DNA from: Cenococcum geophilum
Lineage: Eukaryota
Direction of reading: 5' to 3'
Length of the DNA stretch: 64,000 nucleotides
NCBI GenBank assembly: GCA_050273025.1
Contig: CP158635.1
Coordinates: 20,832,001-20,896,000 of the forward strand
The notes beneath the pieces were generated by a model. It ran no database searches. It saw only the letters and a program-made list of their open reading frames with translations, and was not told the origin of the DNA. The position numbers were made by a program, and so were the translations under genes. Positions 6,601 to 46,265 of this stretch are shown here, one piece after another; the stretch's first letter is position 1, and the number at the start of each line of letters is the position of its first letter.

Positions 6601-6610
6601 AGACTAATAA

Positions 6611-6737
6611 TGTGAGGTGATAAGCTCCGCACCACTCAGCCACACAAACCCACAAAAGGTAAACGAGTGACTGGCTTGATGCCAGACACGGCTGTGCGGA
6701 ACAATATATATAGGCGAGGTGACTTCGTCACCTGATA
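6611..6737. mobile_element. Small solo-LTR-like insertion (127 bp), largely un-RIPed
   Basis: TG start, …CCTGATA end (CA after reversing RIP), AATAA direct repeat on both sides; GC-richer than the flanks. Confidence 0.55.
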
Positions 6738-9219: not shown

Positions 9220-10082
9220 GGTAGAGCCTCGCGCAGAGCTTTAATAAAGCCTTATGTAGAGCTTTAGTAGAGGCTTACGCAGAGCCCTACGCAGAGCTCC
9301 GCGTAGAGCTTCGTGCAGAGCTTCTGCAGAGCTTCGTGCAGAGCTTCGTGCAGAGCTTTGTGCAGAGCTTTATGCAGAGCCTCCGTACGCAGAGCTTCGT
9401 GCAGAGCTTCATGCAGAGCTTTATGCAGAGCCTCCGTACGCAGAGCTTCGTGCAGAGCTTCATGCAGAGCTTTATGCAGAGCCTCCGTACGCAGAGCTTC
9501 GTGCAGAGCCTCCGTACGCAGAGCTTCGTGCAGAGCCTCCGTACGCAGAGCTTCGTGCAGAGCCTCCGTACGCAGAGCTTCGTGCAGAGCCTCCGTACGC
9601 AGAGCTTCGTGCAGAGCCTCCGTACGCAGAGCTTCGTGCAGAGCCTCCGTACGCAGAGCTTCGTGCAGAGCTTCGTGCAGAGCTTCGTGCAGAGCTTCGT
9701 GCAGAGCTTCGTGCAGAGCTTCGTGCAGAGCCTCGTGCAGAGCCTCGTGCAGAGCCTCTGCAGAGCTTCCTGCAGAGCTTCGAGCAGAACTTCGAGCAGA
9801 GCTTCGTGCAGAGCCCCGTGCAGAGCTTCGTGCAGAGCCTCATACAGAGCTTCGTGCAGAGCCTCGTGCAGAGCTTTGAGCAGAGCCTTATGTAGAGCTT
9901 TAAAGAGCTTTAAGCAGAGCTTTAAGCAGAGCTTCGAGTAGAGCTTTAAGTAGAGCTTTAAGCGGAGCTTTATATAGAGCCTTGTATAGAGCTTTATATA
10001 GAGTCTTATATAGAACTTTATATAGAGCCTTATATAGAGCCTTATATAGAGCTTTATATAGAGCTTTATATAGAGCTTTATA
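9220..10082 (+). repeat. 12-bp-based minisatellite (CAGAGCTTCGTG with CAGAGCCTCCGTACG variants)
   Basis: Directly visible tandem array; edge units are RIPed to TAGAGCTTTATA. Confidence 0.95.
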
Positions 10083-10189
10083 TAAATATATAGGCGTATA
10101 GATATATATTTTTATACTAGTAATTAATTATAAAATTTATAGAAATATTTATATAGAAAATTATATAGATATTTATTTATTTATTTATA

Positions 10190-11285
10190 GTAAGGCTAAT
10201 AATACTATACGGCTCCTAGATCTAGGGCCCAGGACTAGGTAGTAAGGTATTAATAAAAAGTTCCTTAGCGCTATTAGCTAAGCTATAAAACTAGTACCTA
10301 TATAGAACTATAAGGGTTTATAAGAGAACACTACGCGCCATACTAGAATATAAAGTAGTAGTTTTACTAGTAGACTTATATTAATATAACTACTATATAG
10401 AGAATAGTTATAGTATAAGGCTACCTAGTAAAAGAAAATATATACTAAATACTAAAACGTATATAAGGAATAAGACGTATATAAGGATCGAAGGCCCCTT
10501 AAAGAGGCAATACGCCTAAATATACTAGCTAGGAAGCTCTCTACCTATAGGTAGTAAAGAGAGAAAAGAAAATATAAAAACTATTAGCTTACTAGGCGGA
10601 GACCTAGCGCCGTATTAATAGAGTACTACTATAGTAATAGAGGATAAGAGGCTATTAGTATAGATAGAGATCTACCATACTTATTATAAAATAGGTAGAC
10701 CTTAAATAGAAGGAGGTAGTGAAAATATAAGACGTAGCTATATAGAATACCCTATAGTTAATACTAATACTCCTCCTATATAAAGGACTAATAAAGGTAA
10801 AATCTATAGCCGCTTTCCTACTATAGATAGAGATTTTAAGCCTAAATATATAGCTAGTAAGTATTTATATTCTAAATATTATACCTTAATACACTTATAG
10901 ATAGCCTATTTAGTTAGTATACTATATACTACTTTTCTATAGCTACTACTTACTAAGGTATTAGCTATTTACTAGTATAGGTATAAATAATATTACTTAT
11001 ACTCTCTATAAGTAGGGGCCTATAAGTAGTATTAAAATAGCTTATAGGCTAAGGAGTTTTTAGTAGTTCTAAATAGTATATAAGATTTAATAGGAGGACA
11101 CTAAAGGATATACCCCTTTTAGCCCCTTAGAGACTAAATACCGCTGCTTAGCTATAAGTAGTATGCTAATAAATTACCAAATACTTCTACTGCCCCCTCT
11201 AGATCTTCTAATATACCTAAAAAGTATAGTATATAAGGTAGACCTAAAGATATAAAGATATATTAGTTTAGTAAAGGTAGAATAT
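10190..11285 (+). mobile_element. RIPed Tad1-like LINE fragment (ORF2 C-terminal part)
   Basis: De-RIPed VRPTMLYGSQIWG…LAKLQNQCLRRTMGAYKRTP…; homologous to the three other copies in 11288-16893. Confidence 0.8.
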
Positions 11286-16949: not shown

Positions 16950-18187
16950 GTTAGTAGAGCTTTAAAGCTCTATATAAGGTTTTGAGCAGAGCTTCAAGTA
17001 GAGCCTTGTGCAGAGCTTCGAGCAGAGCCTTGTGCAGAGCTTTGAGCAGAGCCTCGTGCAGAGCTTCGTGTAGAGCTTCGTGTAGAGCTTCGACCAGAGC
17101 TTTGACCAGAGCCTCGACCAGAGCCTCGACTAGAGCTTCGACCAGAGCTTCAACCAGAGCTTCGACCAGAGCTTCAAGCAGACCCTCGAGCAGAGCTTCA
17201 AGCAGACCCTCGACCAGAGCTTCGAGCAGGCCCTCGACCAGAGCTTCGACCAGAGCTTCGACCAGAGCTTCAACCAGAGCTTCAAGCAGACCCTCGACCA
17301 GAGCTTCGACCAGACCCTCGACCAGAGCTTCGACCAGAGCTTCAAGCAGACCCTCGACCAGAGCTTCGAGCAGGCCCTCGACCAGAGCTTCGACCAGAGC
17401 TTCAAGCAAACCCTCGACCAGAGCTTCAAGCAGACCCTCGAGCAGAGCTTCGAGCAGGCCCTCGACCAGAGCTTCGACCAGAGCTTCAAGCAGAGCCTCG
17501 ACCAGAGCTTCGAGCAGGCCCTCGACCAGAGCTTCGAGCAGGCCCTCGACCAGAGCTTCGAGCAGGCCCTCGACCAGAGCTTCGAGCAGGCCCTCGACTA
17601 GAGCTTCGACCAGAGCTTCGACCAGAGCTTCGACCAGAGCTTCGACCAGAGCTTCGACCAGAGCTTCGACCAGAGCTTCAGGCAGACCCTCGACCAGAGC
17701 TTCGACCAGAGCTTCGACCAGACCCTCGACCAGAGCTTCGACCAGAGCTTCGACCAGACCCTCGACCAGAGCTTCGAGCAGAGCTTCGAGCAGACCCTCG
17801 ACCAGAGCTTCGACCGGAGCTTCGAGCAGACCCTCGACCAGAGCTTCAACCGGAGCTTCGACCAGAGCTTCAACCAGACCCTCGACCAGAGCTTCGAGCA
17901 GACCCTCGACCAGAGCTTCGAGCAGACCCTCGACCAGAGCTTCGACCAGAGCTTCGACCCTCGAGCAGAGCTTCAACCAGAGCTTCGACCGGAGCTTCAA
18001 GCAGACCCTCGACCAGACCCTCGACCAGACCCTCGACCAGACCTTCAATCAGACCTTCGACCAGACCTTCGACCAGAGCTTCAGGCAGAGCCTCGTGCAG
18101 AGCTTTATATAGAGCTTTGTATAGGCGTTCGTGCAGGCGTTCGTGCAGGCGTTTGTGCAGGCTTTTGTGTAGGCGTTTGTGCAGGCA
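16950..18187 (+). repeat. 12-bp minisatellite (CAGAGCTTCGAC / CAGACCCTCGAC variants)
   Basis: Directly visible tandem array; explains the overlapping 365-376 aa ORFs on both strands. Confidence 0.95.
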
Positions 18188-19194
18188 GCGGAGGAGCAAT
18201 AGAGCAGGTAATAAGGCCTAGAGTTAGTCTAGATACAATACATTAGCTATTTAGGTGTTTATCTACTATAAATATTAATATAGGAGGTCAAATGTTAAGA
18301 GTTAGTGGCTCTGGCTAAATGTTTACTGTTTTGGTGTTAATTTGGTGGCAATATTTTAGGCGAAACGTAGCGGTAACCACCAGGCCGTTTGTAATAATTT
18401 TGGCGGCGTTAGAGTCGCCCTGCAAAGCTCTAGAACGTAACGTTAGCCGATTATTTATAAAGGCGTTGGTTCGTTGTTGATTGATGGCTAAAAAATTAGT
18501 ATGGCGCGCGAGTTTGTATGAGAATTACATACAAATTGGCGCGAGGGACTAACAAATTTCCGAACCGTGTACCAGACGACAACAACATAAGATGATTAAT
18601 CTGTTATGTAAGCAGCTTATGATTGGTTGATCGTCTGGGACCGAGATAAAACAATAAAGCCTTTACTAAAGCTTACTAAGTTATTACACTTTTTAAACAT
18701 ATTAAAGCCGGAAGACACTTTAGGCATTACCTATAGACACTCTTTTAGCTTACGCTAGGGGAATATAATAAGATAGAGCACCAGCTTACGCGAGATAAGT
18801 CGCTATTAGTTATATAAAGGACAAGATACGGTATATAGGCTTAAGGGATAATAGAGCGGCTAGCTAATAATGGAAATTAGATAGATATAACTATAATAAA
18901 AGAAATTATTAACTTACTGTTCGGATACCGACTGGTATACATAAAATATTTATCGCTAGTATTAAGGATGCAATTTACAGCTAGCTAAAACTAATTCGTA
19001 ATAGGTTAGACAGGCAGCTTTATTTATATAAAGGGTGCGCCTAGGGTATATAGGCATCACCGTACCAGAAAGAGGCGTCTGGCTTATATTTCAACTTTAT
19101 ATTAGGTAGAGCGTCATTAACTAAAAAATACATCGGGAAAATATTCGCAGGATGAGATTTAAGTAGACTTTGATTTTCGTGTTTCGCGTAATTG

Positions 19195-19440: not shown

Positions 19441-19589
19441 AAGTTAAATAATACGCAGTTAACCTACTTAGCAACTTTAAAAGGTAACTATATATTTCTT
19501 AACATACAATTAAGGTAAAGTTGTATGCTATATATTTAACTATTATATATTATCTAATATAATCTTATACAATCTTATATAGTCTTATT

Positions 19590-19922
19590 ACTTAAAGGCT
19601 CTGCACGAGGCTCTGCACGAGGCTCTACACGAAGCTCTACACGAAGCTCTGCGTACAGAGGCTCTGCACGAAGCTCTGCGCATAGAGGCTCTGCACGAAG
19701 CTCTGCACGAAGCTCTGCACGAGGCTCTGCGCGAAGCTCTGCGTACGGAGGCTCTACACAAAGCTCTGCACGAGGCTCTGCGCGAAGCTCTGCATACGGA
19801 GGCTCTACACGAAGCTCTACACGAAGCTCTATACGAAGCTCTACGTACAGAGGCTCTACACAAGGCTCTGCGCGAAGCTCTGCGTGAAGCTCTGCGTACG
19901 GAGGCTCTACACGAAGCTCTGC
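19590..19922 (-). repeat. Reverse-strand copy of the CAGAGCTTCGTG/CAGAGCCTCCGTACG minisatellite
   Basis: GCTCTGCACGAA and GCTCTGCGTACGGAG units are the reverse complement of the 9220-10082 units. Confidence 0.95.
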
Positions 19923-20049
19923 ATCGGGTCCCCGCTATATTCCCGATAGCGTCTACACGTGTCTCTACCTATGTAGCCGCCTTATTTTTTACCCTTCCTT
20001 CCTTCCTTACATCCTCCCTACCTAGGGAGGCACTAGAACGGCAGCCAGC

Positions 20050-20520
20050 AGAGGACCGTTGCTAGAACTAGATAACTATCGCTAGAATCAGACGACCGTC
20101 GCCAGAACCAGACGACCGTTACCAGAACCAGACGACCGTTACCAGAACCAGACGACCGTCGCCAGAGCTAGACGACCGTCGCCAGAACTAGACGACCGTC
20201 GTCAGAGCCAGACGACTATCGCCAGAGCCAGACAACTGTCGCTAGAACCAGACGACCGTCGCCAGAACTAGACGACCGTCGCCAGAACCAGACGACCGTC
20301 GCCAGAACCAGACGACCGTCGCCAGAACCAGACGACCGTCGCCAGAACCAGATGACTGTCGCCAGAACCAGACAACCGTCGCCAGAACCAGACAACTATC
20401 GCCAGAGCCAGACAACTGTCGCTAGAACCAGACGACCGTCGCCAGAACCAGACGACCGTCTCCAAAGTCAGACGACCATCGCTAGAACCAGACGACTGTC
20501 GCCAGAGCCAGACGACAACG
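20050..20520. repeat. 20-bp tandem repeat GCCAGAACCAGACGACCGTC
   Basis: Exact 20-bp periodicity over more than 20 units. Confidence 0.95.
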
Positions 20521-20569
20521 ACTAGCCAGCGAACACTATAAACGATTCGATCAATTAATCGAATTAAGG

Positions 20570-20930
20570 TAGCATAGACAGGTAGGCACAAACAGGGATG
20601 CTGACGGGTAGGCAAATATAGACAGGTAGGCAGATACAGACAGGTAAGCAGATGCAGACAGGTAAGCAGATGCAGACAGGTAGGCAGATGCTAACGGGTA
20701 GGCAGATATAGACAGGTAGGCAGATGCAAATAGGTAGGCGATGCAGACAGGTAGGCAATGCAGACAGGTAGGCAATGTAGATAGGTAGGCAATGCAAACA
20801 GGTAGGCAATATAGACAGGTAGGCAATGCAGATAGGTAGGCAATATAGATAGGTAGGTAATGTAGATAGGTAGGCAATGCAGATAGGTAGGTAGATAGGT
20901 AGGTAGGTAAGTTAATAGGTAGATAGGTAG
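20570..20930. repeat. 16-18-bp tandem repeat (GATGCAGACAGGTAGGCA)
   Basis: Visible tandem units decaying to (GGTA)n. Confidence 0.9.
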
Positions 20931-22239
20931 AAGAGAACTATCGCTATATTATATTAAATTATCTAAAATAATATTTATTTTGCTAGCCTTATAAATAGCT
21001 TTAAAATAGCTTTTATTTATTTAAAATATGCTATTAGTATAAAAGAGGTAAATATAATTATGGTTGCCAAATACGCAGATTGCTGGCAGGTTGCGCGCAG
21101 GCTGCGCGCAGGCTGCGTGTCAAAAAAACATGACATAGGCTAGTCGGTTGAGTTGCCAAATGACCTCAACTGCGCGCTAATTGCGTCAACCACCAGCCAT
21201 TGAGGCCATTAAAAGGGTACCATATTTTCCCGATGTAAATCTTAGTAGAACGGGCTAGAATATATTAAACTAAAAGTATAAGCTTATAAAACTTTTATTT
21301 AGAAAAGATAATAAGATATAGAGAGTAACGTCCGTCCCTAGGTCGCGAAAAACCCACCATACCAAAAAATATAAGGGGTACTTTGACTTTAAGCAACTTA
21401 AACTCTGCGTATATATTAATATTTACTATAGTTCTATATAAGTCATATGCTATAGCTACTTTTAAACATTTAGGACCCCTTCCACCTATAAATTATATTC
21501 GCATTATCGCCTTTACGCCTAATTCGCAGAGAGCCTCCTTTTATAGCATAACAGAGTTCCTTCCCTACAGCACTACCGTTAAGCTCTTACCACTCTATAA
21601 TACTTATAAACGGTCTTATCTAAGCCTTAGAGCTTTACTACAATGCTAGAAAGTCATCATTAGCCTTATACCTACTATAGCGCGCAAATTTATGTAAGGT
21701 TACTACGCGCGTTAGTACTTCCAATTAAAGCAATTACCGATCCCGGCTAGTGCAAAACAACGCCACATATCCTATATAATTATCACCGTGTAATTTACTT
21801 ATATTATCTAGTTAGTAAGCTAAGCTTATGGCTGTTAGGCTTATAGCTATACAGACGCTTAGAATATAAAGATTTAACTCCAAAGTAGTTAGCAAATAAT
21901 ACTAATAACCGCTTAACACATCCTAAAGTAGCATCCGCTTTATTAAAACGTTATCCTCTCTTCCTAACTTATTACTTTAAAGTTATTATTATTGTTTATA
22001 TAGTAGAGCGTACTACTTACTAAAAAACGCGACTAAAAGCGCTCAGACCCTCTTTAAGGCTTTTACTATATAGTAAGAAGGCAGCAGCGGTCCTAGTACC
22101 TTAAAAGAGCAGAGGGCTGCGTATTTACGCTTCCTTCACTCGCCCCTCTCAAAGCGCTTAACTCCTATTATCCTTAAAGGCACCATAAAGGGTAAAGATT
22201 CTTTATTTTTCGCTGTATTTTTAAATCTAACGGTCCGCA

Positions 22240-30102: not shown

Positions 30103-33100
30103 CACGAGAATATTGACAGACCATATACTGATACCCTAATTGATTCCTGTTAAATTATTGAATATACTATAATCGACAGTATACTTCGACTAATTAATAC
30201 CTTAACGAGAATTAACCTATCGGCGCGTCTCCCTTAATACCCTACTCGTATAATAACTGGTTAAATGTGCTACAATTAACAGTATACCTTAAACCAATGA
30301 ATTAACTATGGCTAGTAGTACGATAGCATATCAATTGATTGAATAATCGATAACGTCTCAAACTACCTACCAATCGACGGTAGACCTTGAGAAACCGACA
30401 GACGGATTGTGCCGTTACGCCTGCGATCCGAATGCGATCCGAATGCGATCCGAACGCGACCCGAACGCGATTCAAATGCGAACCCGACCGACCGTCGTGC
30501 CGATATGCCTGCGACACGAACTACGACTTTGACAACGACCGTATGAGTTCATCAACGATCGACTGCTCCCTTACTGATTCGATTGTTTTCTTCTCAACCT
30601 ACAATAATCCTTTTCGACTGACACTAAGCTACGCATACTGGGGAACGACTACGGTTAATACTGAGTTATACAAGCTTACCTCAGGCATTTGTACACTTCG
30701 ACAACGAGGTTAATACTAAGCTGTGTAAGCTTCGATAACGAAATCGATTTAGACGAACTGGATAATAATCGCGCCGTTATGCCTGTAATCCGAATGCGAT
30801 TTAAACGCGATTCAAATACAAACCGATTAACTAATTGTGCCGTTATGCCTGCGATTAATCGACCAATAATAGCGCCGATACGCCTGCTATCTATTATCAG
30901 ACGCTAGCACCGTACTGCTACCGAACAGACAAGAGCTCGTGCCGATACGCATGCGAGCTATATTTCTTTTTTTATGGCTCGGGGCGCGCCATATTAAAGG
31001 AGGGGGCAGAGAGCTAGGAGGTACTAAGTTCTAAGAGAAGGAACGACAACCACGAAGGACTTCTAGCGATATACACCTCTCACAGCAGCAGGATGGCTGT
31101 ATGCCCTACGCTAACCTAACAACGACTGTGCTACTACGCCTATAGCCTAACCAACAGACCGATCGTGCCGATACGCCTGCAATTTACTAGCCAACTAATA
31201 GATCGAGCTTCGAACGTTCGACTACTGTCACTACCTAACGCTTGCACCGTACTGCTATCACGATCGACCCTTGCTGCTCTGCCTGCAGCTGATCCCGATT
31301 TGACCATCGCTGCTCTGCCTATAGCACCACTACCGACTTCTACTGCCCTGCTTGTAGTAACAACTGTATATAAGGTGGAGCTTTGCCCCTTATATAACCC
31401 TGCCGCTTGCACCATACTGCTACCCCAAATAGATAACTGATTGTGCCGTTATGCCTATGATCTACCGACCGAATGATAGCGCCGATACGCCTGCTATTAT
31501 AATAGACGCCTGCTGCTCTGCCTGCGGCTGACTAACCCTCGCTGCTTTGCCTGCAGCCAACTAACACCTGCTGCTCCGCCTGCAGCTAAACGATCAGACC
31601 ATCGCTGCTCTGCCTATAGCACTATAACTAACTTCTACTGCTTCGCCTGCAGTAATAACTGTATATAAGGTAGAGCATTGCTTCTTAGGTATACCCAGCC
31701 AGATAGAGCATAGCTCTCTAGAAGGCAACCCCGTCGCTAGCACCGTACTGCTACCTAAATTAATAAGCTCCGCGCTGATATGCCTATGGAACTATAACCT
31801 ATTAATAAGACTTTGTGCCAATATGCCTGCGAATATGACCCCGTCGCTAGTACCGTACTACTATTAGACCTCTGCTGCTCTGCCTGCAGCTAATTGACCT
31901 TTACTGCTCTACCTGCAGCTAAATATAATACCTTGCTACGTTACTGTAGCCAACCAACACCTGCTGCTCTGCCTGCAGCACTATAACCGACTTATACTGC
32001 TCTGCCTGTAGTAGTAACTGTATATAAGGTAGCTCTGCTCCTTAGAATACACCTTGTCGCTAGCATTATACTGCTAGAACTAGATAAGTTACTGCGCTAA
32101 TACGCCTGCGGAATAGATAAGATCTCGTGCCGATATATATGCGAGCTACATTTCCCTAACCCTCCCACCCTTATTTTCGCCTGCCTTTTTATAAGAGGGG
32201 GAGTAGGGGGGTTTTCTTTTTTTTATAGCTCGGGGCGCGCCATATTAAAGGAGGGGGTAGAGAGCTAGGAGGTACCGGAGTTCTAGGAAGTCTTAGAAGG
32301 AGGAACGACAACTAACGGAGGGCTCCTAGCGATATACCTCCCGCAGTAGCAGGAGCTGTAGGATGGCTGCCTGCCCTAAGTATAACAAGGTATAGCGATA
32401 TACCCCCGCAGTAGTAGGAGCTATAGGACTGCTGTAAGTCCTATGTTAACCAGCATCGCGATTGAGCGCCAAATACTAGATTTTTTTTTCTTTTTCTTTT
32501 CTTTCTCTTTCTTTTCTATAAGGGGATAAAGCCTGAGGGCAGGCTTTCTTAAAGGAGGGGGTGATGTTACGGCACCGTTACAGACCCTAGTTAGGGGCTC
32601 GCTTGGAGACTTGGCGCCTGTATATAGACATGTCCTTTCCTTGACCTTCTTCTGCTCCTTAGCTTAGTATCTTCGTAATACAGCATTCTATAAGCTTCGG
32701 TTCAGAGGCATTTATACGAGCCGTAACACAACCTACTATTAGCGCTAATGCACTTAATAGCAGTTACTATTGTCCGCTTAACACCCGCGCCTCTATAGTC
32801 TTATAGATCGTCCTTACCTATAAAAACTTTAACGGAGCTGAGCATACTTAGTATAACTCCGGTCTTATCTATATTATAAATATTTTCTAGTAAAATAGCC
32901 AGATTCTATAGTACCTTTCTAATTACCTTAAACCACTCTTTAATCTTATTATATATATTATTCCTATAATGTTTTTAGTTAATTGCCCTGACTCTTCTCG
33001 CATTAAGTTTAGAATAGCGTTTCTTAAAGACCTAAGGCCAGTTCTTACCTAGAGGCTTAATTGGTTTATTTATAAACCACTAGCAGCCGACACTAAAAGC

Positions 33101-33185
33101 TAGCGAAGGTATAAACTTAATTCGTATAAGTTGCCTAAAATTAAATATTAGTAATAAAAACTTAATAATAGCTTTCTCCTCCTCT

Positions 33186-33378
33186 AGTAACGGCTCGAAC
33201 CATCGAACAAATGTCTCAACAGAGACTTAAACGAATGCTTGCAAGATCAAGCGAACGAATGCTGTATTATGAAGATATTAAGCTAAGGAGCAAGAGAAGG
33301 TGGTGAGGCGACGTCTATATACATATGCCAAGTCCTAAGCGAACCCCTGACTAGGTGACGCGCTCCAGCGCCGTCACA
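33186..33378 (-). mobile_element. Solo LTR related to the 24701/32565 LTR family
   Basis: TSD CCTCT at 33181-33185 and 33379-33383; shares the reverse complement of GCTCCTTAGCTTA…ATACAGCATTC. Confidence 0.85.
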
Positions 33379-34469
33379 CCTCTTAGGTAAGGTATTGCTG
33401 GCTTTAGGCCTATTCCTCTCTTAAGCGTTATCCGTAACTACAATAGTAGAGGGTAGAGAGAGGAATATCGCCCTATTTTAATAGGGCAGTATATATTCTA
33501 GGCACATCTATAGGAAGGCCTTTTACTAGCACCTGGCTAGCTCGGTCTATATTAGCAATTATAGTAATAGGAAAGAAATAAGTAAAAGGCTAACAATAAC
33601 CCCATACACTTAACTTCTAAAAATAGCCAGCACATAACCACTTAAGGAAGGAAGCTTCTAGAAGAGCGCCACACTTTACATTATTTTAGCATAGTGTAGA
33701 GTATAATATAACTAGCTAGATATACAATATATCACTATATAAGCGCGCTAAATCTACACGCCAAGCTGCAGAGCATACCTCCGCATAGAGAAACTTAAAA
33801 GTGCATACTTTTTAAGAGCTAAGCGTCTTCAAATCTTAGAGGTATTCTTTTTTCTTAATAGAATTATTGTCTTAAGGCTCCAAAATCTAACAATACGTAG
33901 ATAGTTATAGTAGAGTAGGGGTACAAAGCTGATATAGTTCTAGATGCTGTAAACGGAATAATTAACAGCATAACTAAGACTGTTGTATTTTTCTCGCTAT
34001 AGATTGGTGTCGGAAGGAGAAATATCTAAAGAATAATAATATATTAATTATAACTTTATAGACTTACAAGGTAAAGACTTAAGGTGCCTAAATAATAAAT
34101 TTATTTCAGCGTGGGGGGTTTTTCGCCCCTTAGGGAGGGACGTTACTAATGTATTATATCTATCTTCTGCTTAACTCCTAGTTATAATGCTAGTACAGCA
34201 GCGAACTTTATATACCAAAATACTCGTCCGTTAAGTTTCTTTATTAATTTAATATTAAGTCACGTAGATAATATGGAAGTCTATATTATAGCCCAATCTA
34301 TATAATAAAGAGTTTCTAACTCCAGTTTAAAGTATCCAGCTCGCACACGCCTATGCACTCACCCGTACTACAAAGGCATTCTTTCTACTAAATTATGTTT
34401 TTATATATTGTGTTTTTATATTTATTGTTAAGCAAAAGCTTTAGGCTAAGACTAAATAGGACCTTTATT

Positions 34470-37400
34470 GGCTTATACGTGAATAAAGTTAATAGGCTAC
34501 TTTTGCGTCAGATCGGCTCACTATTGTAAATAACTATATCCTATGTAATAATGCCAAATTCTAAAGGGTCTACCTTAATAACCTCAAATTCAACTTGCTC
34601 TATGCCGTTATAAGCTATAAAGTTATTACCTTAGTATACTGGCCGGTATGCCCCCTAAAAGTAGAAAATAAGAAAGTTATTAAATAGTAAATTAGTAATA
34701 CTGCTTTAAATAGGACGAACAGCAATACGCTTAGCCTAAATATAGTTAGTATTATTATTAAATCGATAGAAATACCTACCGGTTTAATATCCAGATATAG
34801 ATATATCTAAATGCTATTACCACTCGCGACTTAAAGATTATTACGAATAATATAATCTACTTAAGCGATACTATCTTCTAGCTTATTATTCTTTAATATA
34901 ATTAGGACTATACTTTTTCCTACTTAACCTTTAACTAATATAATGTTCCTATAAGAAAACTTAGAGGTATTTATAGTATTATTTAAAAGGGCGATAATAG
35001 AGCTGTTAGTGCTAATAGTTTTAGCAACGCTGTTATTAATTAACTTAGTAAATATTTAAAGCTTTATAATAATGCTTAGACACTTATATTAAAGAATTTA
35101 CTCTGCTCTTTTTATAATTAATAGATATTATCTTATCCTACGAGAATGTTAGATAAAAAGGATATATAAGTAGTTAAGCGTATATTAGGAGAATATATTT
35201 TTTAATAACCTCCACACTAAAGATCTTATTTATTCCACGTTTTAGTTATAGCCAAAGTTCTATAAAAATGATTTTCTGGGGGAAGAGACCGTTCTATATA
35301 CTAAAATTATATAAAAATCGATTTAGGTAAAGTTTTAACACCCTTATAGAAACCGTTTCCGGAGTTATATAGGCACACTTTACATACTAAAAATAGCGCG
35401 TCCTATCTTAGGGTCTAGATTAACAGTTTTCTTCTCCTTTTATATTTATTGATAAAACTAGTTATATATATTACGTCAGACAGCTTTAAGGAATTAAAAA
35501 GTCACTTTCCTAAACATTTTAATATCCTAGGATATTAAAAGGCCTGTGGGTTATATATATATACTAGTATTTAAAGCAAACCCTAGCTTATTTAGCATTA
35601 ACTAAACCCACATAGTGTTCCTGTTAGAACTCGTGTTAGGATTATATTAATAAGGATCTAAGCTATTTATATAGGGGGGAGGGACCCCCTATAGAACCCT
35701 AAACTAGGTCCTATTTAGCTTTTAATAGTTTTATATTTTAGTAGCTAGGCTTAAATATTATACTCCTATTATCTAAGAGATTTAAGGATTAGCTAATCGA
35801 GACCCTAGTCTTATAGTTAATATTATTATAATATAGTAGCGAAGGTTCTTTAATTGGAATATAAGAGCTACTTAGTTCTAATTTATAGCCTAAATTAAAA
35901 AACCAATAAGAGACGCGAGCGAGATAGAGTTTTAGACAACTGCGGTAGGATAATCTTATAGGGCATGTAGGCCTTAATAGGCGTATAATAGAGATAAAAT
36001 CGTTTATACTGTATATCCTTTTAATAGTAGACAAGAGGGCTGCCATAGGTAGATTTATATTACAAACTTTCTTAAATAATATCATTTTCTAAATATAGTA
36101 GAGTATAAGAACCTTTTCTAGGGCCTTTTTATTTTTAGTAATTAAGAGCTAGCGACAATATATATAAGTATAGGGTCTCCTTTTAACCTTTTAAAGGGAT
36201 TTAAATTAAAAACTATATTATAAGTAATAAGGTAAGTCAAACCCTATAGCAGAGATGCGTATACTAACAAAAAAGTAGTAATAAGATTCTTAATAGTTAA
36301 CAAAAAGTCTCTAACTATAAGTCTTTAGGTAGTGGCAGAGTTGTAAGTATTACAGTAGCTATTTTCGTATTTATTATTATAGTAAATGCCCTCTATATAT
36401 ATTTGCGTAGGCGGAAGCGCCCAATATGGGTTAGAAATTTTAAAATCCGTTCTAGCCCGGCTATATTACAACCTTAGCTAAATAGAGTAGCAATATTAGA
36501 GTAACAAAGTAGCAAATTTAAGTTAATATTAGAGCCTACACTTAAGATTAGTAACTAGCTTATTTAAAAGGCCTACGTTACTTTTATAATATTCGAAAAA
36601 CCTAATATATCTACTATTTATTATAATACTCTAAAGGCGGACATACTTAATACTAAGATAAAGAATTATATATCTATAAACTTGCTAAGGTTATAAAGTT
36701 TTACATTTATTAAAGTTAAAGCTTTAAGTAAATCTTTAAATAGTTATAGGGTAGTTTTAAGACCTTAATAACCTATCGTGCACCTAAATATAGTTAACTC
36801 TTATAGCTGCTTAGAACTAATATTTTCTAATATACCCATAATAGCACTCCAATTACCCGGTTTAAATGCTTTAATAAATAACAATAGAGTTTTAAGGTTT
36901 AATAAGTAATATATAAACTAAAAAGAACTATCTACCTACGGCTACGAAAATCTGCTAAGCATAACTATAAGATTTAGGAGTTTTATATACTTAAGAATTA
37001 ATAAGTATTTATCTAAATTGCGAAGGTTTTTAGACCTTATATTTTCTAGTTAGAGTTTAAGGGGTCTATTTTACAAAGCTTTTACTATTACTAATAATGT
37101 AATCGCGAGTTTGTATTCGTCTCTATATTTATAGCGGTAAGGAATATTACAATATATAATTGTAATGAAATTCTTTATAACCCTTAAGCTTTTAATAAGG
37201 AGAGAGGTAAGAGGGCTTAATAATAGCTAACGTCCACGCCAGTCTAGTAAGGTTATATTAAGAGTAATTTCTTTAATATAATAATAGGGCTTGCGCTTTA
37301 GAAATTCTTTAAACTCTACTAAGCTTTTTAGCGATATATTAACTTTTACTTTACAATAACACTTCTACTAAAAAGTATTTAGGCCTATAAAATAAAGTTG

Positions 37401-39480
37401 TTAAAAGCTACGTATTACGTTGCGGATGTCTTAAATAGGCAAGTAGTTAAGGATGTGCTTAAAGAGTTCTACTAGTAAGAAGAGCAGAGGTAAATATATT
37501 ATTTATAATATAGTCAGAGGCTATATAGTTTAAGAAAGTCTAAATAGATAAAGATATAACGTTTTAAAGCTTAGTTAGTGCTTACAAGGCCTTTTAAAGA
37601 AGAAGATTAACTTAAAGTAGTAAAGGCTCCATTTCTAGACTCTCTAAATACCATTTTTAGCTCTTAGGCTTATATAGCTAAAGGCACCCTTTTAAATTTA
37701 GAGGTTCTAAAACTAGTTCTAGATCACTCTTCGCCAGCTTTTTAGGTCTCTTATTACTAATAAAGCGAAGTCTATAAGCAATATAGCCTAGGCGTATAGC
37801 TTAGCTATATTAATTAAGAATTATAGCGCCTAACCTTTCCCCTTTTATTAAACGCCTAATTAGCCTAAAAAAACCGGTCCTTTAGCGAAGCTAAATAGGA
37901 CGTATTTTATAGTTTAATACCTTTCCTTATATAAATAGGAGTCGCTATTTATACATGCACCCATTTTTACCTCATTAAATCGTACTTAAGTAGTATAGAC
38001 TTAGAGGTTTAGATGCTACTAGACCCACTAATAAGCTAATTTAAAAAAATTATACATTCTTCTATATAACTAACTTCAGTAGGAAATTCTACTCTTATAT
38101 TATTTAACTTAATATAATAAGGCTAGCGGAAGGCTTATACGGATATAAATACTACTGTAGCGAGATAGATACTTATACGTAACGAGTTTAAATTTTTAAG
38201 AGGGTAAAGTTGGCTATAAATAAAGCTAATAAAGTAACTAAAATCTAATTTACTAAAATATTAAATAATTGCGCCATCTATATCCTATACTAAGCTCTTC
38301 TTTTTAAAATAATAACTTTATAAAATCCTCTATAATATCCCCCTAGGATAATAGCATAATAACTAGTCCTACCATTATTGCAAGAGTTAGGTTATTAATA
38401 TTATTAGGCTATTAAACTATTATTACTACGAAAGCCGCTCCGTTTATTTCTTATAGTATATATATAGTCCCCTTTCCTTTTACGGTTAAATTTAGTAGTT
38501 TATAGATAGGCTTATTTAGCTAGTTAACCCATTTAATTAATAGTTGCTTGCCAGCTTTAGCAACAAAAGGCATTTATATTAGGTCCTATATAAACTCTTA
38601 CTCTACCAGCCTTCTGGTGCTATTTAAATATTTAGCACTAGCTAGTTATATAACCGTTAGTATTAATAGAATAGGTACTAGGACTTTAACTAGGTATAAT
38701 CTAGGGACTGTAAATAAAAGAGTAAGATTGTAAGCCTATATACTACTAATTTTAGTATTAAATGGAGCCGGGTTAGGTACTTCACCCTAAATATAATAAA
38801 AGAAGGCGTCGTATCGTGATTTAACTATAAGTATTAATGATACCGCACCCATAAGCAGAGGATTAGTAGCTACTATACGTTAGGAGAGTCTAATAGTAGC
38901 GCTAATACCTATAGACGTTATAAGATTAGCAAGTGCAAAGAATTTAGGAGTTAAGTTTATAGGGAATAAATAATTGCAAGGAGGAATTAAAACTATATTA
39001 TAGTTTATAAGGAGGTTTACAAGGCTTTTAAAGTAGACCTCTTCTTGCTATAAACGTATTAGTTAGTATATAGCACATAGCACAAAGAGGGACACCTATA
39101 GCAGCGATTTTGCTAACAATTTCAATAGTGTTATTAGCGTATTCATTAGTGCCCCATCTTCCAATATTTATTAGGCTGTTATTAAAAAACAAAACCTCTA
39201 AATTTTTAAGAAATTGCGCTAACTGGAGCTCCGCGATTGTACTTATAGATATTATAGTCAGTATCCCGCTATTTAGCGAACTACCTTCTACTATATCTAT
39301 TATCTCTAGACAAATTAATATAGCAGTAGTAAGGCTTCCTAAAGTAAGGGAGAATATATAAATAAGGGTATAAATATCCTAAAGGAGTTACATAGCTGCG
39401 GTTAAAAACTAAATAATAAAAGTAAAGTGTAATTTACAGCCCCAAATATATGGATTTATAGAATATATAGTAGAATATCT
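34470..39480 (-). pseudogene. Long RIPed gene (or adjacent genes) with an internal F-box, a leucine-rich region and a C-terminal Cdc48/p97 N-domain
   Basis: F-box-like LPVELFEHILDYLPIQDI (~37430-37490); Cdc48-N-like SSIIALSNDTM…RKSTVLIVLKDD…IRDNLRV…HPCLDIK|AKRIAV…AYRPVHQGD…QVEFEVIKVDPLEFGIITQDTVI (34520-35040). Confidence 0.65.
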
Positions 39481-40099
39481 ATTAGTATTTCTAATAAACC
39501 CTTACTAGTTTAAGAGGAAGGTTTCTATTTTAGGCCCTTAAACTAAGTAAGGGCTTAGTAAAAAATTCTTTTTTAGGTTCCTCTATATATAAACAGTTTT
39601 ACCCTCTTATTACCTAACAAGATTATATTATGCCGAGGCCTTACTAGAATCTTATTATAGCTTATAAGTCGCCAAAAAGCCTCTAAATAGGATTAGGACA
39701 TAAATCGTCTTTCTAGGATACGTTAGTAAACAAAACTGTAAATACTTTAGAGCAAGAAACCTACCTTTATAGCTATTTTAGTTATAAAAGGAAACCCTTA
39801 TTAGGCTAAATTAAGCCTAAACAGGATAAAAGAGTCTTAAATTAGCTCCTTTTAGAGCTAACTATACTAGGATTAGCTTCTAGTTAGTAATTAGTATTTA
39901 AGTATAAAACTCTCTTCCAATTATATACTCTTAAGAATTTTAATCTCTTAACCTCTTACTAGAAACTTCTATAGCCTTTTTAAGTAATCTTATTATCTAA
40001 AGACATTTAATCTCTATTTATTATGCTAAAGGGAAAGTACTTAGAAGAAACCGTATAATAACTCTATTAGTTAAACACCTAAGGAAGTACTTACAAACC

Positions 40100-41217
40100 G
40101 CCTAAGAACTACGCTATACTTAAAAAAAATCCACTATTAAGCCCAACTAGCTAATATAGTAGAGTTATTATAACTAGCGAATATAGTGGCTAAAAACACG
40201 ATAACTAATAGGTAAAGTTTGGTATATTAATTATTTTCTTTACTGCTGCTATCTACTGTGCAGTATTTAGGCTTCTGGTATTATTTAAACCAGAATTTAA
40301 GGATATAGGTATTATAACATTAAACGTAAGTAAATAGATTTATTTAATACCATCTTTAGTGCTCTTAAACTTATACCTAGTTATAGGTAAATTTAATAAA
40401 CTTTACTCTATTAATGGGGTTGTCCTATAAGCCGCAGGCTATAAGTAATATTTTCCAGCCTATTCCTAGCTAGGTTTAGAGTCTTATAGGCAGTAGTACT
40501 ACCTTAGTAGAGAGCGCGATTGGGGGTCCTACTACAGCTGCTCTAAGCGCTAGAAATATAGCCGCTTTAGTAATTAAGAGCGGTGTAAATATAGCTACGT
40601 TAGTAATTAAGAGCGGTGCGAATATAGCTACGTTAGCAATTAAAAGTAGTATAAATACTATTACTATAGCAGCTTAGAATATAGCAAATAACTTTATTAA
40701 TAAAAACATCCCTAGGAATCTATTAGTAGGGATAAAAAAGCTCTATCTTAAGTATGCTAACAGCATACAGGACTGCCATATATTACCTTTAAATATTTCC
40801 AATATTATACTAAAAGTTATTCTAGACTTACTGGGCGACGAAATCCAAACCCTTTAAAATTTAGAAGACTCTTTAGTAAACGCTGCCCTAGAAAACACCT
40901 AATACTCATTAATTATAAGACTTATATTTATATTTATTACCGCGGTAGCTTTATATTATTTAACTAGTTATCTTTAAAATCTTAGTATCTTAGTAAGACT
41001 AATAATTGGTTTGCTATCCGGTTTAGTATATTTTATTTCCTTTTTAGTGTTTACTATTATTTTATTTATCCTTTAGTCAAAGTTCCGGGCAATAATTAAG
41101 AAAGATTTGCCTTTAATTTTTAAAGTAGAGGTAGGTAAAGTAAGCAGGTATTATTTAGGAGCTCTTTACTATACTTTTATAATATTATTAACTAGTGCAT
41201 TAACGGCATTTGTTTAA
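40100..41217 (+). pseudogene. RIPed putative membrane protein gene with an internal 33-bp tandem repeat (~40555-40690)
   Basis: De-RIPed IPRNLSVGTKKLCLEY…DCHMLPLNIS followed by several hydrophobic segments. Confidence 0.45.
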
Positions 41218-41227
41218 GGTTTATATA

Positions 41228-41290
41228 ACGTCCGTCTCTAGGTTAAAAGACGCACCCTATTAAAAAAACAAATTTGCAGTTTTAACCTCT
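41228..41290 (+). mobile_element. Orphan pogo-type terminus
   Basis: TA|ACGTCCGTCTCTAGGT… resembles the 21328 TIR. Confidence 0.55.
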
Positions 41291-41863
41291 AAAGTCTCTT
41301 ACTTAGGAGTTAATAAAGTCATACTTAATGTCTTCTTATTCTTCGGCTATTTCTTTATATAGAAACCACTCTATAGCGAGAACATAACTGTAGTTGGTTA
41401 TACTATTAATCGTCCTATTAGTAGCGTTAAAAGCTACTTTAGCTATTCCCCCCTGCTCTATTATAACTATAGGCCTAAGTATAAATTTTAGAATCCTAGA
41501 TTAATAGCTCTATTAAAAAAAATATAATTTAAAAGTTTTAAGACACTCTACTTTTATAAACATATATTTGGGGAATTTCGCTAAGCGGAGGAGGGGTATC
41601 TACTAAGGCGTAATAATTTAGTACGTATTAATATGCATTAGCATGCTTATATTAAACTATATTTTTATAGTATTAATTTTAACACCATCCTATTTTTAGA
41701 ATATATTTTAGCATTATTATAGCGTACGCAATCTCTTCCCCGCTTCCTATTATGAAATATTTTAAATATTAACCACTACCTTAAACCCTTCTAAGACGTT
41801 TATAAATATTTATTAAATATATTGCAAGAGCATAGCAAACAAGATATACCACTATATATCTTT

Positions 41864-44800
41864 TGTAACGAAGCCTTATAGCAAGTACTACGATAGGCTC
41901 GTTAATGGGCTAGGTGTGTAGGTATTATAAGCAAGTTAATAACGTAATAACAACTAGTAGAGTGGTTGCCTAACAGATTAACTCTAATTATATTCTAAGA
42001 ATTACTACAAGGAAAGAACTATCTAGAGTAGGGACTATAGTCCTTTAAATACATAACCGTACTTTTAGAAAACCCTCCTTATACGTAAGGTATGCGTACT
42101 CTATTTACTTTATCGCAAATTATATAGATTATACAGATTATATAGATTATATTATATAACTTAGTTACCATTCCTTATTATATAGTTTTACCGGCTCTAT
42201 TTTAGACCGTACCTATATTAACTAACTAGCTTCTTCTAACTCCTCTCTAAGTAGTTATAATATTATACTTAAAGCGTCCGTAATACTATCTCCCTCCTCT
42301 TTATCTTCGTCCTTAAAGATTTTAAATATCTCTAAGTTATTTACTAAAGGTATAATATCCATCTAATTAATTTAGTTAATATTGTTACTTATTATACCTA
42401 AAGTAATTTCTTTTTCTTCTATAGTTTAACGTACTCGCACTATTACTGCTATACTATTACTAGGTAAAATAATACTATCTTTATATTCTCGTTATATAAA
42501 AAAGGGGTTAGTTTACGTTGCGCTAGTAAGCCCTTTATTTTAGTAACCTTCCTTTTATTTAGAGTGTACTAAAGCAAATATTTATTTATCCTATAACGTT
42601 TACTCTATTTCTAACGCTAAGTATATACGTTTTATAACTTTTAATAGTCTCTAAGTTCTCTAAGTAATTTATTATGGGGTTTTATATTTAATTTACTACT
42701 ATAAAGCTTAATAGTAAGCTCTTAAGCGCTCTTAATAAATTATATTAATCGCGAAAGGCGGAATAAAAGGCTATGGCTGCTTAATAGCGTGCCCTTAAAA
42801 CTCGTCTTCTAGCCTTTACTTATTTTCTACGTCTTAAACGGGTTTGTAAAAAGGTTTATTTTAAGAAGTAGAAACTTATAAAATAAGGTCTGCAGGAACT
42901 GGGTAATAAGAGAACTAACTCTCTTCCTATAAAGGGAATAACTCTAAGTAGTTCGGCAGTCGCTCTTCCTAGGTCCCCCTTAGGTAACTTATTTTTTAGC
43001 GATCCTTCTTTATTAATATTACCTAACCTATTTTCTTCCGATACTCTCCTATACCTTTCCTATAGCGTTCTTTAAATTTTTTAGTAGCTCCTAGGTAGTC
43101 TTGTTATAGCCTATCCACTTTACCTTATACTATATTTTATCATTAACGTCCTTATAACTAACGATCTTTAAAACTTACTATTTGTCTTCTTTTCGCCCTT
43201 TATACGTGTCTGCTTTATAAACTAGTAGCTTAATATTTCTATATACTGGCTTTAGCATTACAATATACTATATAGGGTAGATTCTTATTCTAGCTGGTAA
43301 GTTTAACTTAAATATAACTGGTAAAATCCTTTAAATAATTTTAAAAGGTCCTAGTCTAATATAGTCTAACTTCTTACTTAGTCGTTAACTCTTGAAATTT
43401 TTGTGTAGTAGCTATACTTTATCTCCCTCCTTAAGATCTAGTCCCTTAGATCTCTTAGCGTTATAGTATTTTTTTTATCCTTTACTATACTACTTTTGCT
43501 ATTTCCGTAAAGTTCTTATAAAGATTTATTAATATCTCTATTCTTTACTTTACTATACTACTTATCTTTTTTACTTAATATAGTGATAATAATGTCCTTA
43601 GCTCGTATCTATAATTCGCCTTAAATAGTAAAGTACCTATTCCTTTTTAAGGTATTATATTGTATATAAACTATATAATTAGTAATAGTAATACCTAATT
43701 ATTTTATACGTAATTAATATAGTGCCTTAGATACTACTCTAGTATCTAATTTAGTCTTTCTATTTAACTATCTATCTGCAGATAATATGCGGTAAAAGTT
43801 ACTGCTCTAACTCCTTACTCCGCTAAGAATACCTCCTAAAATACTGCTATAAATTTTAGATCTCTATCTAATATAATTTTACTTAATACTCTATATCTTA
43901 TAAATACTTCTTTAATATAGATTTTAGCGACATCTTCTGCTAATATTTCTTCTATATACGCTATAAAGTATCCCTACTTTATAAACTTGTCCACTATTAC
44001 TAAGATTATGTTATAATTTTACCCTATAATAGGATCTCTTAATTTTAGTAACTTAATAATAAAGTCCTATAATATAACCTCCTATAGTCTTTTTAGTATT
44101 TTAATAGGTTATAGCCCTCTATATAGCTTATGCCTTATTAGTTTATTCCTTTAGCAATTTAGATACTCTTTAATGACCTTCCTAGCTATCCTTTAGATTC
44201 CATTAATAATATACTCCTCTTAAAGTCTTAATACTAAGCCCGTAGCTCTATTATATCCTTAAGTTAGTTCCTTATAGAAATCTTCTATAAAGTGCTTTAC
44301 TATACTTCTTAGGATATACTTTACTTCTTAGTTTTCGTATATATCCGTTTATAGATCTTTTAGCTATATTTTTAGAATTTTCTATACCTAAAAGCTTTCT
44401 AGTAACTTATAAATTCTATTTAACTTATTTTCCTAAGTTACTGCGATCTTTAAATAATTGTATTTAATTAACCTATCTATATCTTTTTGCAGTAAAGCCC
44501 CTAATGGCTTTTTATTATTTTGTAGTTTAGCCTTTTAACTTAACACATTGGCCCGTATATTGTCTATACCCGTAATATACTAAATCTTAAAATAATATTC
44601 TATAAGCATCTCTGCCTATTTAACCTATCTTTAGTTAAGTTCCTTTATTATTAGGAATCCTATTAGGTTTTAATAATCCATTTTAACTATAAATAGTTTC
44701 TCCGTGCCTTATAAAAATGCTCTCTATTTCTTTAATACTATAACTATACCTAATAACTCCTTATTATAGATGTTATAGTTTAACTCTAGTAGTATTATTT

Positions 44801-46265
44801 TTTAACTATAGTATACTACTAGGTGCTATTTATCTAGATACTTTTATATAAAATATACCCCTAGTATAAAGTCTAATATATCTATTTCTATAACTATCTT
44901 TAGTCCTAATTAATAGATCTTAAGAACTAGCTCCTAGGTAAACAACTCTTTAACTCTCTTAAATAGTTTTTATTATTCCTTCCCCTATACCTACGGTTCT
45001 TCTTTTTTTGTTAGTTGTATAAATAGCTTAATATTCTTTAATTATTGCGCTATAAACCTTCTACAGTAATTGCAAAACCCTAAAAATAATCTTAACTGTA
45101 TAACATTCTCTAGTTCTTACTAATTTACTATAGCCTTAATCTTCCTTAGATCTATACTAAATTAGCTTAGTTTAATAATAAATCTAATAAAATTGGTCTT
45201 CCTAGTAAAGAACTCGCATTTTTTAATTGCTACTAGTATCTATTCTTCTTATAGTCTCTTTAAAACCCATTTAACGTGTTCTCCATATTCTTCCTTAGTT
45301 ATTAAATAGATAATAATATCGTTAAGGTATACCATAATAAATTTATCCAAGTATTCTCCTAATACATTATTAATTTGCTTTTAGAACATTGCTAACGCGT
45401 TTATAAGCCTAAATTATATAACCAATAGTTTATATAGTCCTTTTTTTAACTTAAAAGCTGCCTTCTATTTATCGCCTTTCTTACTCCTAATCTAATAGTA
45501 CGCCTATCTTAGATCTATCTTTATAAAGATTTGCATATTACCTATCCTATCTTAAATTTTGCTAATTAAGGGTAAAGGATACCTATCCTTTCTAGTAATG
45601 CTATTTAACTATTTATAGTTAATATACAGCCTTAGTTTGCCATTCTTCTTTAGTATAAATAGTACTGGATAACCCGCTAATAATTGTAATAGTCTAATAT
45701 ATTCCTTTTATAAGTTCTCCTAAATAAACTCTTTAAGTACTTTACCTTCTTTTTTAGTAAGCTTATAGATTGGAAAGAACCTTAAACTTATTCCTAGTTT
45801 TAATTCTATCTTATAGTCCTATATTATATACTTTAATAGCTTTTTACTTTCTAGTAACTATAGTTTCTTACTATACTTATAGTATCTCTTTAGTATATAG
45901 CTTAGCCCTTTTTCTGTTTCTTTATAGGTCGCTCCTACTTAGTACTATACTATCTTAGCTTGTTATTACATCCTACGGCGTTAAGTATTCTTAATATTAA
46001 CCTGACCTATAACCTAATTAATCTTTAGATTATATTCCTATAATTAAGGCATTCCTAATACTGCCTTATTATTCCCTAATAGTAATATATTAAAAGATAT
46101 CTTAATTTATCTTCCTTTAATGGTTAACTAAATAGGTCCTGTTTTAAGATTAATAATACCTCCTTTATAGGCTATTAAATCTCCTAAAATTGTTACTAAT
46201 AGGTAAGGATATTCCTTTTTCCTATATAGTAACCCTATTTTTTTTAACTACTATTAGCGAGATAT
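41864..46265 (-). mobile_element. 5'-truncated Ty3/Gypsy chromovirus: protease remnant, RT, RNase H, integrase, chromodomain and 3' LTR (41864-42285)
   Basis: VYLDDI (~45320), LGPFKI (~43345), YEVKWIGY…TWEP chromodomain (~43090-43125), PPT next to the LTR; LTR is the reverse complement of 54667-55088. Confidence 0.95.

Follow-up and report, generated by a model that had tools for sequence, protein, structure and literature searches.

Within the 64,000-nucleotide stretch of Cenococcum geophilum DNA analysed here (the window; contig CP158635.1, positions 20,832,001 to 20,896,000, forward strand), the minus strand carries a ferritin-like gene, a stand-alone F-box gene, a spacer and a piece of cdc48 comprising both halves of the Cdc48 N-domain. 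All three coding segments are riddled with in-frame stops of the kind left by repeat-induced point mutation (RIP), and a pair of inverted arms lies outside them (Table 1).

Table 1 Features of the locus, in window coordinates
Feature	Position	Strand	Basis and remarks
Inverted repeat, left arm, 368 bp	33778..34145	.	blastn E 3.75e-34; partner 41226-41591, 64% identical
Cdc48 N-domain second half (beta-clam), pseudogene exon	34499..34735	-	phmmer vs PDB; 5 in-frame stops
Intron-like gap, 44 nt	34736..34779	-	GTAGGT 5' site, ACTAAC branch site, TTTAG 3' site; frame shifts
Cdc48 N-domain first half (double-psi barrel), pseudogene exon	34780..35028	-	phmmer vs PDB; 4 in-frame stops
Spacer, F-box gene to Cdc48 homology, ~1.46 kb	35029..36499	-	no Pfam match in any frame
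Stand-alone F-box gene, RIP-killed	~36500..37493	-	phmmer homologs; 19 stops in 333 codons
Ferritin-like (Ferritin_2) gene, full length, RIP-killed	38346..39387	-	exons 39387-39070 and 39047-38346; 12 in-frame stops
Inverted repeat, right arm	41226..41591	.	partner of 33778-34145

The original prediction placed both subdomains of the Cdc48 N-terminus at ~34520-35040, and phmmer searches of the PDB bear this out. Minus-strand 35028-34783 aligns with residues 44-125 of Chaetomium thermophilum Cdc48 (chain 6chs_H; E 5e-9) and likewise with yeast Cdc48 (E 1.5e-8), while 34735-34499 aligns with residues 127-209 of the same Chaetomium chain (E 1.1e-15). Counted by hand from the phmmer alignments, identity to Chaetomium Cdc48 is 29/82 aligned positions in the first half and 40/79 in the second, where two gaps (3 aa and 1 aa) are both in frame. 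The second half matches 69 PDB sequences at E<=1, and all 60 of those listed are Cdc48/p97-type N-domains. One of these 60 bears the title ‘vesicle-fusing ATPase’. The corresponding Pfam families were recovered in part: CDC48_N matches the piece below its cut-off (E 0.0028; 18.3 bits against 35.1), and CDC48_2 does not match it.

The two halves lie in different reading frames, and the gap between them carries splice-like signals and the frame shift at exactly the place where a short intron had been proposed. The retention of this intron argues that the piece was copied as genomic DNA. The homology ends at ~34499, in the linker between the N-domain and the first ATPase domain (D1), and the proposal that the piece stops before D1 likewise holds: three minus-strand frames of 32141-34540 contain nothing Cdc48-like, and searches of the PDB (E<=0.1) and of Pfam (E<=0.5) matched nothing there. 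A RIP-tolerant Walker-A pattern finds a single match in the whole window, at 62697, in an unrelated context. A word-index search for longer proteins containing the second N-domain half returned 26 candidates, none of them significant.

Upstream of this piece, the region described as containing an F-box does hold such a gene, judging by its homologs. Eight library proteins of 117-350 aa match it by phmmer, a count that leaves aside P0017 and P0039, which are short, 80%-identical fragments of the gene from other copies. Six of the eight (P0048, P0063, P0103, P0115, P0132 and P0147; 283-350 aa) are collinear end to end with 37499-36480, starting from residue 1-5. Pfam recognises the F-box above cut-off in P0048 (24.4 bits), below cut-off in P0063 and not at all in the other six. 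The window's own frames give no Pfam F-box match, and their N-terminus aligns with the F-box region of the homologs. The leucine-rich repeats attributed to this protein did not materialise: no LRR family appears in the window frames (minus 35041-39540, plus 33001-42002) at E<=0.5, nor in the eight homologs at E<=0.01.

The coding-like sequence that was thought to run from the F-box region into the Cdc48 homology is interrupted by the ~1.46-kb spacer, in which the frame changes several times and every frame holds many stops. Inside it, a 99-codon stop-free stretch (36088-35792) belongs to no family recognised by Pfam and is unrelated to Cdc48. A single F-box/Cdc48-N fusion gene, spanning ~37493 to 34499, would be suggested by the shared strand and order of its two parts and by this stop-poor stretch between them. 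We nevertheless give the fusion next to no credence, since homologs of the F-box part stop at ~36500 and reach at most 350 aa, the spacer switches frame with stops throughout, and a CDC48 family match occurs in 0/8 scanned homologs. The F-box gene and the Cdc48 piece are separate, an outcome named beforehand as one that would overturn the fusion reading.

The third gene, upstream of the F-box gene across a spacer of ~0.85 kb, is ferritin-like. Its phmmer matches reach E 8.7e-50, Ferritin_2 is found by Pfam in 7/7 scanned homologs, and the gene is complete, with tblastn spanning residues 2-345 of P0013. Pfam run on stop-masked frames returned no match in minus 35041-39540 or plus 33001-42002. 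The same procedure overlooked the Ferritin_2 and F-box genes found by phmmer, so that its blanks in the spacer are weak evidence; it did find an RT_RNaseH domain (E 3.6e-13), and blanks therefore exclude well-conserved domains only.

All three segments are wrecked by RIP. In-frame stops number 9 in 165 codons of the Cdc48 piece (counted over 34783-35037 and 34496-34735), 19/333 in the F-box gene and 12/340 in the ferritin-like gene, and all nine in the Cdc48 piece are of types that RIP can make from sense codons. Across 34470-39400, TA/AT is 1.49-1.72, (CA+TG)/(AC+GT) is 0.34-0.54 and the GC fraction is 0.27-0.32; the thresholds for the two RIP indices lie at ~0.89 and ~1.03, respectively. The locus also appears to be silent where it could be followed. 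In one RNA raw-read run from one condition (X18), 9.29 million records, or ~12% of the run, placed six reads, all partial and all within 37740-38093, and zero reads in this scanned share fell on 34200-37739, which holds the Cdc48 piece and the F-box gene.

The substitutions in the second N-domain half allow its source to be considered. We hand-sorted its differences from Chaetomium Cdc48 using the phmmer alignment against the window codons: 39 of the 79 positions differ; C>T or G>A changes suffice to explain 24 of these, leaving 15 that such changes cannot produce. The 40 identities together with the 24 RIP-type differences would fit an ordinary cdc48 source plus RIP, judging from the alignment. 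The 15 remaining differences and the two in-frame gaps could point to an older or more divergent source.

These observations also bear on whether the piece was once a gene in its own right. Before RIP, it might have been a working stand-alone gene within a repeated unit, with a truncated product that sequestered UBX or Ufd1-Npl4 cofactors. The break exactly at the domain boundary, the intact intron signals, the in-frame character of both gaps and the RIP-creatable nature of all nine stops would agree with such a gene. We consider it highly unlikely, however: no intact copy was found, 5/5 public ORFs covering the piece being 73-91 aa long; run X18 placed no reads on it; neither a start codon nor a promoter can be assigned; and a pair of in-frame gaps would arise by chance about 1 time in 9, which does not suffice to show selection. 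Moreover, once RIP is allowed for, up to 64/79 positions of the second half could match Chaetomium Cdc48, the level to be expected of a plain copy. A more elaborate version, in which the block before RIP was cargo of an active mobile element whose expressed N-domain-only protein competed with host Cdc48 for UBX/Ufd1-Npl4 cofactors, strikes us as very improbable; if true, a selfish element would have meddled in the protein-extraction machinery of its host. The idea of a captured host domain stands in one part, a cdc48 fragment within repeated DNA being a fair description. Its supposed role as a decoy or recruiting module is unsupported, given 9 stops in 165 codons, zero RNA reads from the scanned share of X18 and public ORFs, five in all, of only 73-91 aa.

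The whole stretch 34200-39500 is present in several diverged variants, as DNA runs X2 and X6 show. They yielded 281 and 286 contigs on it, covering 30/30 bins; at identities of >=99, 95-99, 90-95 and <90%, the contigs number 66, 56, 103 and 56 in X2 and 17, 67, 123 and 79 in X6. Contig depths added together do not give a copy number, and other strains, not other copies, may be the source of some public variants. The differences between these contigs and the window are mostly transitions. Transitions also prevail in a metagenome contig, L001, which aligns with 34486-35691 at 87.3% identity: they number 141, against 7 transversions and 5 gap columns. Its reading frame breaks, and its Cdc48 homology ends, where those of the window do. 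Besides this RIP-mutated copy, a metagenome scan for native cdc48 returned only the locus itself (L002, 99.77% identical over 30193-37268). The open stretch at 36088-35792 is covered by six public ORFs (125-164 aa, 76-86% identity), and Pfam found no credible family in the four of these that were scanned.

The presence of these variants weighs on a further explanation, in which the only native cdc48 gene lost its 5' end, the present piece, to transposon insertions, and RIP spreading from neighbouring repeats mutated that piece. The kept intron and the ordinary look of the neighbouring genes would be expected of a native locus. We regard this explanation as barely conceivable: the piece occurs in several diverged variants, no ATPase remnant lies downstream, and an intact copy must exist elsewhere because cdc48 is essential in yeast.

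How the block was multiplied is a separate matter, on which the flanks provide some evidence. It could have been passenger DNA of a transposon, carried either by a Starship or by a TIR element with the 368-bp arms as its ends, an origin that would be compatible with a dead relic today. The variants take in two whole genes over a length of at least 5.3 kb, the inverted arms bracket a 7.8-kb unit, a retrotransposon pol flanks this unit on the right (the RT_RNaseH match noted above), and a pogo/Fot-like transposase remnant, read by eye, flanks it on the left. The arms are a possible bound of the block, and their alignment (222 identical columns, 71 transitions, 64 transversions and 8 gap columns) is set apart from eight control alignments with 140-160 identical and 58-122 gap columns. 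However, because they are far more diverged than the block copies are from one another, with 64 transversions in 357 columns versus 7 in 1206, they resemble two old members of a different repeat family, not working ends. In addition, neither a transposase nor a captain could be tied to the block, and Pfam DUF3435, relevant to a Starship, is absent at E<=0.1 from the six frames of 2701-6900. We therefore hold the transposon origin to be possible but doubtful.

A 16-nt motif at 34449 (+), 35706 (-) and 37888 (+) was also considered as a candidate for element ends and was rejected as not significant. It has 8 matches in the window at <=3 mismatches versus 3.4 expected, a number reached by 3 of 100 shuffles, and the similarity between the 35706 and 37888 sites extends for just ~60 nt. 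Its blastn-short E values are 0.016-0.064.

In sum, the locus is very probably a dead, RIP-mutated relic, one of the copies of a duplicated gene block whose end lies within cdc48. According to this explanation, an ordinary stretch of fungal genomic DNA would have been copied several times, either as transposon cargo or through segmental duplication. The copied strand would have held the ferritin-like gene, the F-box gene, the open stretch of no recognised family and some 210 codons from the start of cdc48, interrupted by one intron, and we infer that this last part derives from the cdc48 locus of the host itself. At one of its ends, the copied block would have broken off in the linker between the N-domain and the first ATPase domain, and this would explain why the fragment resembles a neat module consisting of the N-domain only. 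RIP would then have hit every copy, because the block was repeated, leaving C-to-T and G-to-A changes and stops across all three genes; duplication followed by RIP is the probable order of events. The three genes are distinct units, each with a start of its own and set apart by spacers; nothing in the block is fused, and nothing would be expressed or translated.

The locus matters little in itself: it is another case of duplicated host genes ruined by RIP in a repeat-rich fungal region, and amounts to ordinary genomic debris. It does carry a warning for annotators, in that a tidy ‘domain-only’ module beside another gene, where RIP has been at work, can mark the place at which a duplication broke off, with no designed fusion involved. 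The multi-gene block might also be used as a marker to follow large-segment copying in this genome. Among the publications found that join repeat-induced point mutation and Cdc48, none is on this topic as far as titles and abstract openings tell.

Compared with Cdc48/p97/VCP, for which 6chs provides the closest solved chain, both N-domain halves are recognisable here, whereas the D1 and D2 ATPases are missing, and nine in-frame stops and two small in-frame gaps are present; the piece is not a functional member of this family. Gene-fragment capture by Pack-MULEs and Helitrons (fungal Helitrons are the subject of PMC5148889) likewise places a host fragment with an intron inside multi-copy DNA. 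The present block, in contrast, consists of whole genes with normal spacers and not of a small fragment between tight terminal repeats, and convincing ends or a transposase were not found. As in Starships (PMC8092012), the ordinary-looking host genes here could be cargo, but Pfam did not confirm a captain in the six frames of 2701-6900. RIP-mutated duplicates in AT-rich blocks of filamentous ascomycetes share with this locus low GC, high TA/AT and depletion of CA and TG, as well as transition-only-like differences between copies, frames filled with TAA and TAG, and a lack of transcripts. Duplicated genes of this sort, mutated by RIP within AT-rich repeat blocks, are known from Neurospora crassa and from the isochores of Leptosphaeria maculans. 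The block described here does not differ from such duplicates in kind; it carries two whole genes and, with them, a piece of cdc48 that stops at a domain boundary.

The original prediction, a Cdc48 piece that comprises the N-domain alone and is split by an intron, is borne out by matches to two PDB segments and by intron signals between them. When the minus strand was translated with X at stop codons and compared with the PDB, the two N-domain halves were found in different frames, one on either side of a 44-nt gap (see table). The first half additionally matches yeast Cdc48 (1.5e-8) and p97 (about 1e-3), while the second matches 69 PDB sequences at E≤1, of which the 60 listed are N-domains of the Cdc48/p97 type (one bears the title 'vesicle-fusing ATPase'). 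Counted by hand from the alignments, identities to 6chs_H, a Chaetomium thermophilum Cdc48 chain, are 29/82 and 40/79. Pfam detects CDC48_N below threshold (E 0.0028; 18.3 bits, cut-off 35.1) and yields no CDC48_2 match in the piece. Judging from its sequence, the gap is plausibly a short fungal intron, located where one had been predicted; its retention would indicate that the template of the copy was genomic DNA rather than mRNA. Nine in-frame stops interrupt the 165 codons of the piece, and the five public ORFs overlapping its first half are only 73-91 aa long.

Features in and around the block
Feature	Position	Strand	Evidence
Putative pogo/Fot-type transposase remnant, left of block	~33250-32740	-	Translation resembles HTH and early DDE part
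368-bp inverted repeat	33778-34145 vs 41591-41226		E 3.75e-34
Cdc48 N-domain, second half	34735-34499	-	Residues 127-209 of 6chs_H, E 1.1e-15 (PDB)
Intron-like gap, 44 nt	34779-34736	-	Coding strand GTAGGT...ACTAAC...TTTAG
Cdc48 N-domain, first half	35028-34783	-	Residues 44-125 of 6chs_H, E 5e-9 (PDB)
Stop-free 99-codon stretch	36088-35792	-	Single striking feature of the spacer, amid heavily RIP-mutated DNA
Ferritin-like (Ferritin_2) gene	39387-39070 + 39047-38346	-	tblastn: residues 2-345 of database protein P0013
LTR-retrotransposon pol relic, right of block	~42900-45000	-	Pfam RT_RNaseH E 3.6e-13; RT_RNaseH + RT_RNaseH_2 E about 1e-13

The Cdc48 homology stops at ~34499, in the N-D1 linker. 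In the next 2.4 kb, the three minus frames of 32141-34540 matched neither a PDB chain (E≤0.1) nor a Pfam family (E≤0.5); the same PDB comparison readily found the less conserved N-domain. A RIP-tolerant Walker-A pattern has one match in the whole window, at 62697 in an unrelated context. The end of the block happens to coincide with a boundary between Cdc48 domains.

The proposed fusion of this domain to an upstream F-box/leucine-rich protein does not hold: homologs show two separate units, an F-box gene and a Cdc48 fragment, the outcome that had been named in advance as refuting the fusion. A phmmer search with the minus frame of 39539-36300 against 1.84 billion representatives (E≤0.001) returned 157 matches, which fall into two separate groups. 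The first (query 144-398) consists of related proteins of about 330-345 aa, with Pfam Ferritin_2 in 7/7 members scanned; the corresponding gene in the window is complete, with two exons, and RIP-killed, with 12 in-frame stops. Its nearest intact relative is P0011, a hypothetical protein of Acephala macrosclerotiorum (52% identity). The second group (query 684-974) comprises 8 proteins of 117-350 aa, together with the short fragments P0017 and P0039, which share 80% identity with the window and differ from it by RIP-type changes. Pfam places an F-box above cut-off in P0048 (residues 6-42) and weakly in P0063, and finds none in the other six; neither an LRR nor a CDC48 family occurs in any of the 8, which leaves the leucine-rich part of the prediction without support. 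A joint alignment shows the members of this family to be collinear with 37499-36480 from the initial residues through to their ends, and the F-box gene is therefore self-contained, with 19 in-frame stops in about 333 codons.

About 1.46 kb separates the end of the F-box gene from the start of Cdc48 homology. This spacer has stops in all frames, and its frame preference switches several times. Its stop-free stretch has six variant ORFs in public metagenome assemblies (76-86% identical, 125-164 aa), four of which were scanned and gave no credible Pfam family, the single weak match (E 0.034) lying below cut-off. Other copies of this ORF have about 10 extra codons (RLLDSGKYIF) that are absent from the window copy.

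An ordinary cdc48 gene would suffice as the source of the piece. Classified by hand against Chaetomium, 40 of the 79 second-half positions are identical, 24 are explicable by C>T or G>A alone and 15 are not; the alignment has two in-frame gaps, of 3 aa and 1 aa. Once RIP (repeat-induced point mutation) is taken into account, up to 64/79 positions could match by this manual estimate. Such agreement is judged to be ordinary divergence between orders of fungi, and a special paralog thus seems unnecessary.

The block is repeated, and all copies seen are damaged. Two DNA runs matched to 34200-39500 at ≥80% likeness gave 281 and 286 contigs, with 30/30 bins covered. In identity classes of ≥99, 95-99, 90-95 and <90%, these number 66/56/103/56 and 17/67/123/79, respectively, and the overwhelming majority of their differences are A<>G or C<>T. 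Summed depths do not equal copy numbers, but up to 11 distinct contigs per position show several variants of the block. With a pattern that was derived from the Cdc48 piece and made purine/pyrimidine-tolerant, two metagenome contigs were retrieved. One of them, L001, represents a further copy, with 87.3% identity across 34486-35691 (141 transitions, 7 transversions, 5 gap columns), and shares with the window copy both the frame break and the end of Cdc48 homology. The other, L002, is the window's own locus, 99.77% identical over 30193-37268 before diverging within the F-box gene; this departure is either a chimeric assembly or, in another strain, a true insertion or rearrangement. Beyond window 37268, within the F-box gene, L002 continues (7077-10726) with an unrelated 3.65-kb sequence that is RIP-mutated in part.

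In an RNA raw-read run, of which 9.29 million records (about 12%) were covered, 6 partial reads fell on 37740-38093 and zero on 34200-37739. Summed depth rises above its surroundings at 35622-35721 and 37881-37950, the sole places matched by RNA or 'RNA?' records; a palindrome, TATAGGGGGGAGGGACCCCCTATA, lies within the former at 35670-35693. A 14-16-nt word common to both places (inverted), and also present at 34449-34464, was discarded because the similarity is not statistically significant.

Most of the window is AT-rich (GC 0.26-0.35), with a few GC-richer islands, and long open frames are nearly absent except in repetitive arrays. The stretch under study has GC 0.27-0.32, TA/AT 1.49-1.72 and (CA+TG)/(AC+GT) 0.34-0.54, a RIP signature by the customary dinucleotide-index thresholds. 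We note that four GC-richer tandem arrays (9213-10111, 16951-18246, 19583-20065 and 20049-20937) have several frames open across both strands, share 70-86% identity with one another and are minisatellite-like in appearance; a 33-nt unit is also repeated three times in tandem at 40546-40644, within a stop-poor stretch (40480-40674).

It is possible that the block multiplied as transposon cargo, given the retrotransposon pol to its right and the putative pogo/Fot-type remnant, itself without Pfam or PDB match, to its left. Pfam did not confirm a candidate dead Starship captain gene at 3131-6600. Inverted arms do bracket a 7.8-kb unit holding all three genes, but their identity is only 64%, and transversions are as numerous as transitions. 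They are therefore far older than the block copies and are read as a pair of old copies of a different repeat rather than as working element ends. By eye, integrase-like and chromodomain-like sequence follows the pol relic, and a strong negative GC skew over 42000-46400 matches the relic. The pogo/Fot-type remnant lies between 80-nt inverted repeats (32608-32688 and 33257-33334; 79-91% complementary).

In sum, the suggested decoy function is not supported. The feature is one copy of a duplicated block of several genes, killed by RIP and silent, and adds a new case to a familiar class of fungal genomic debris.
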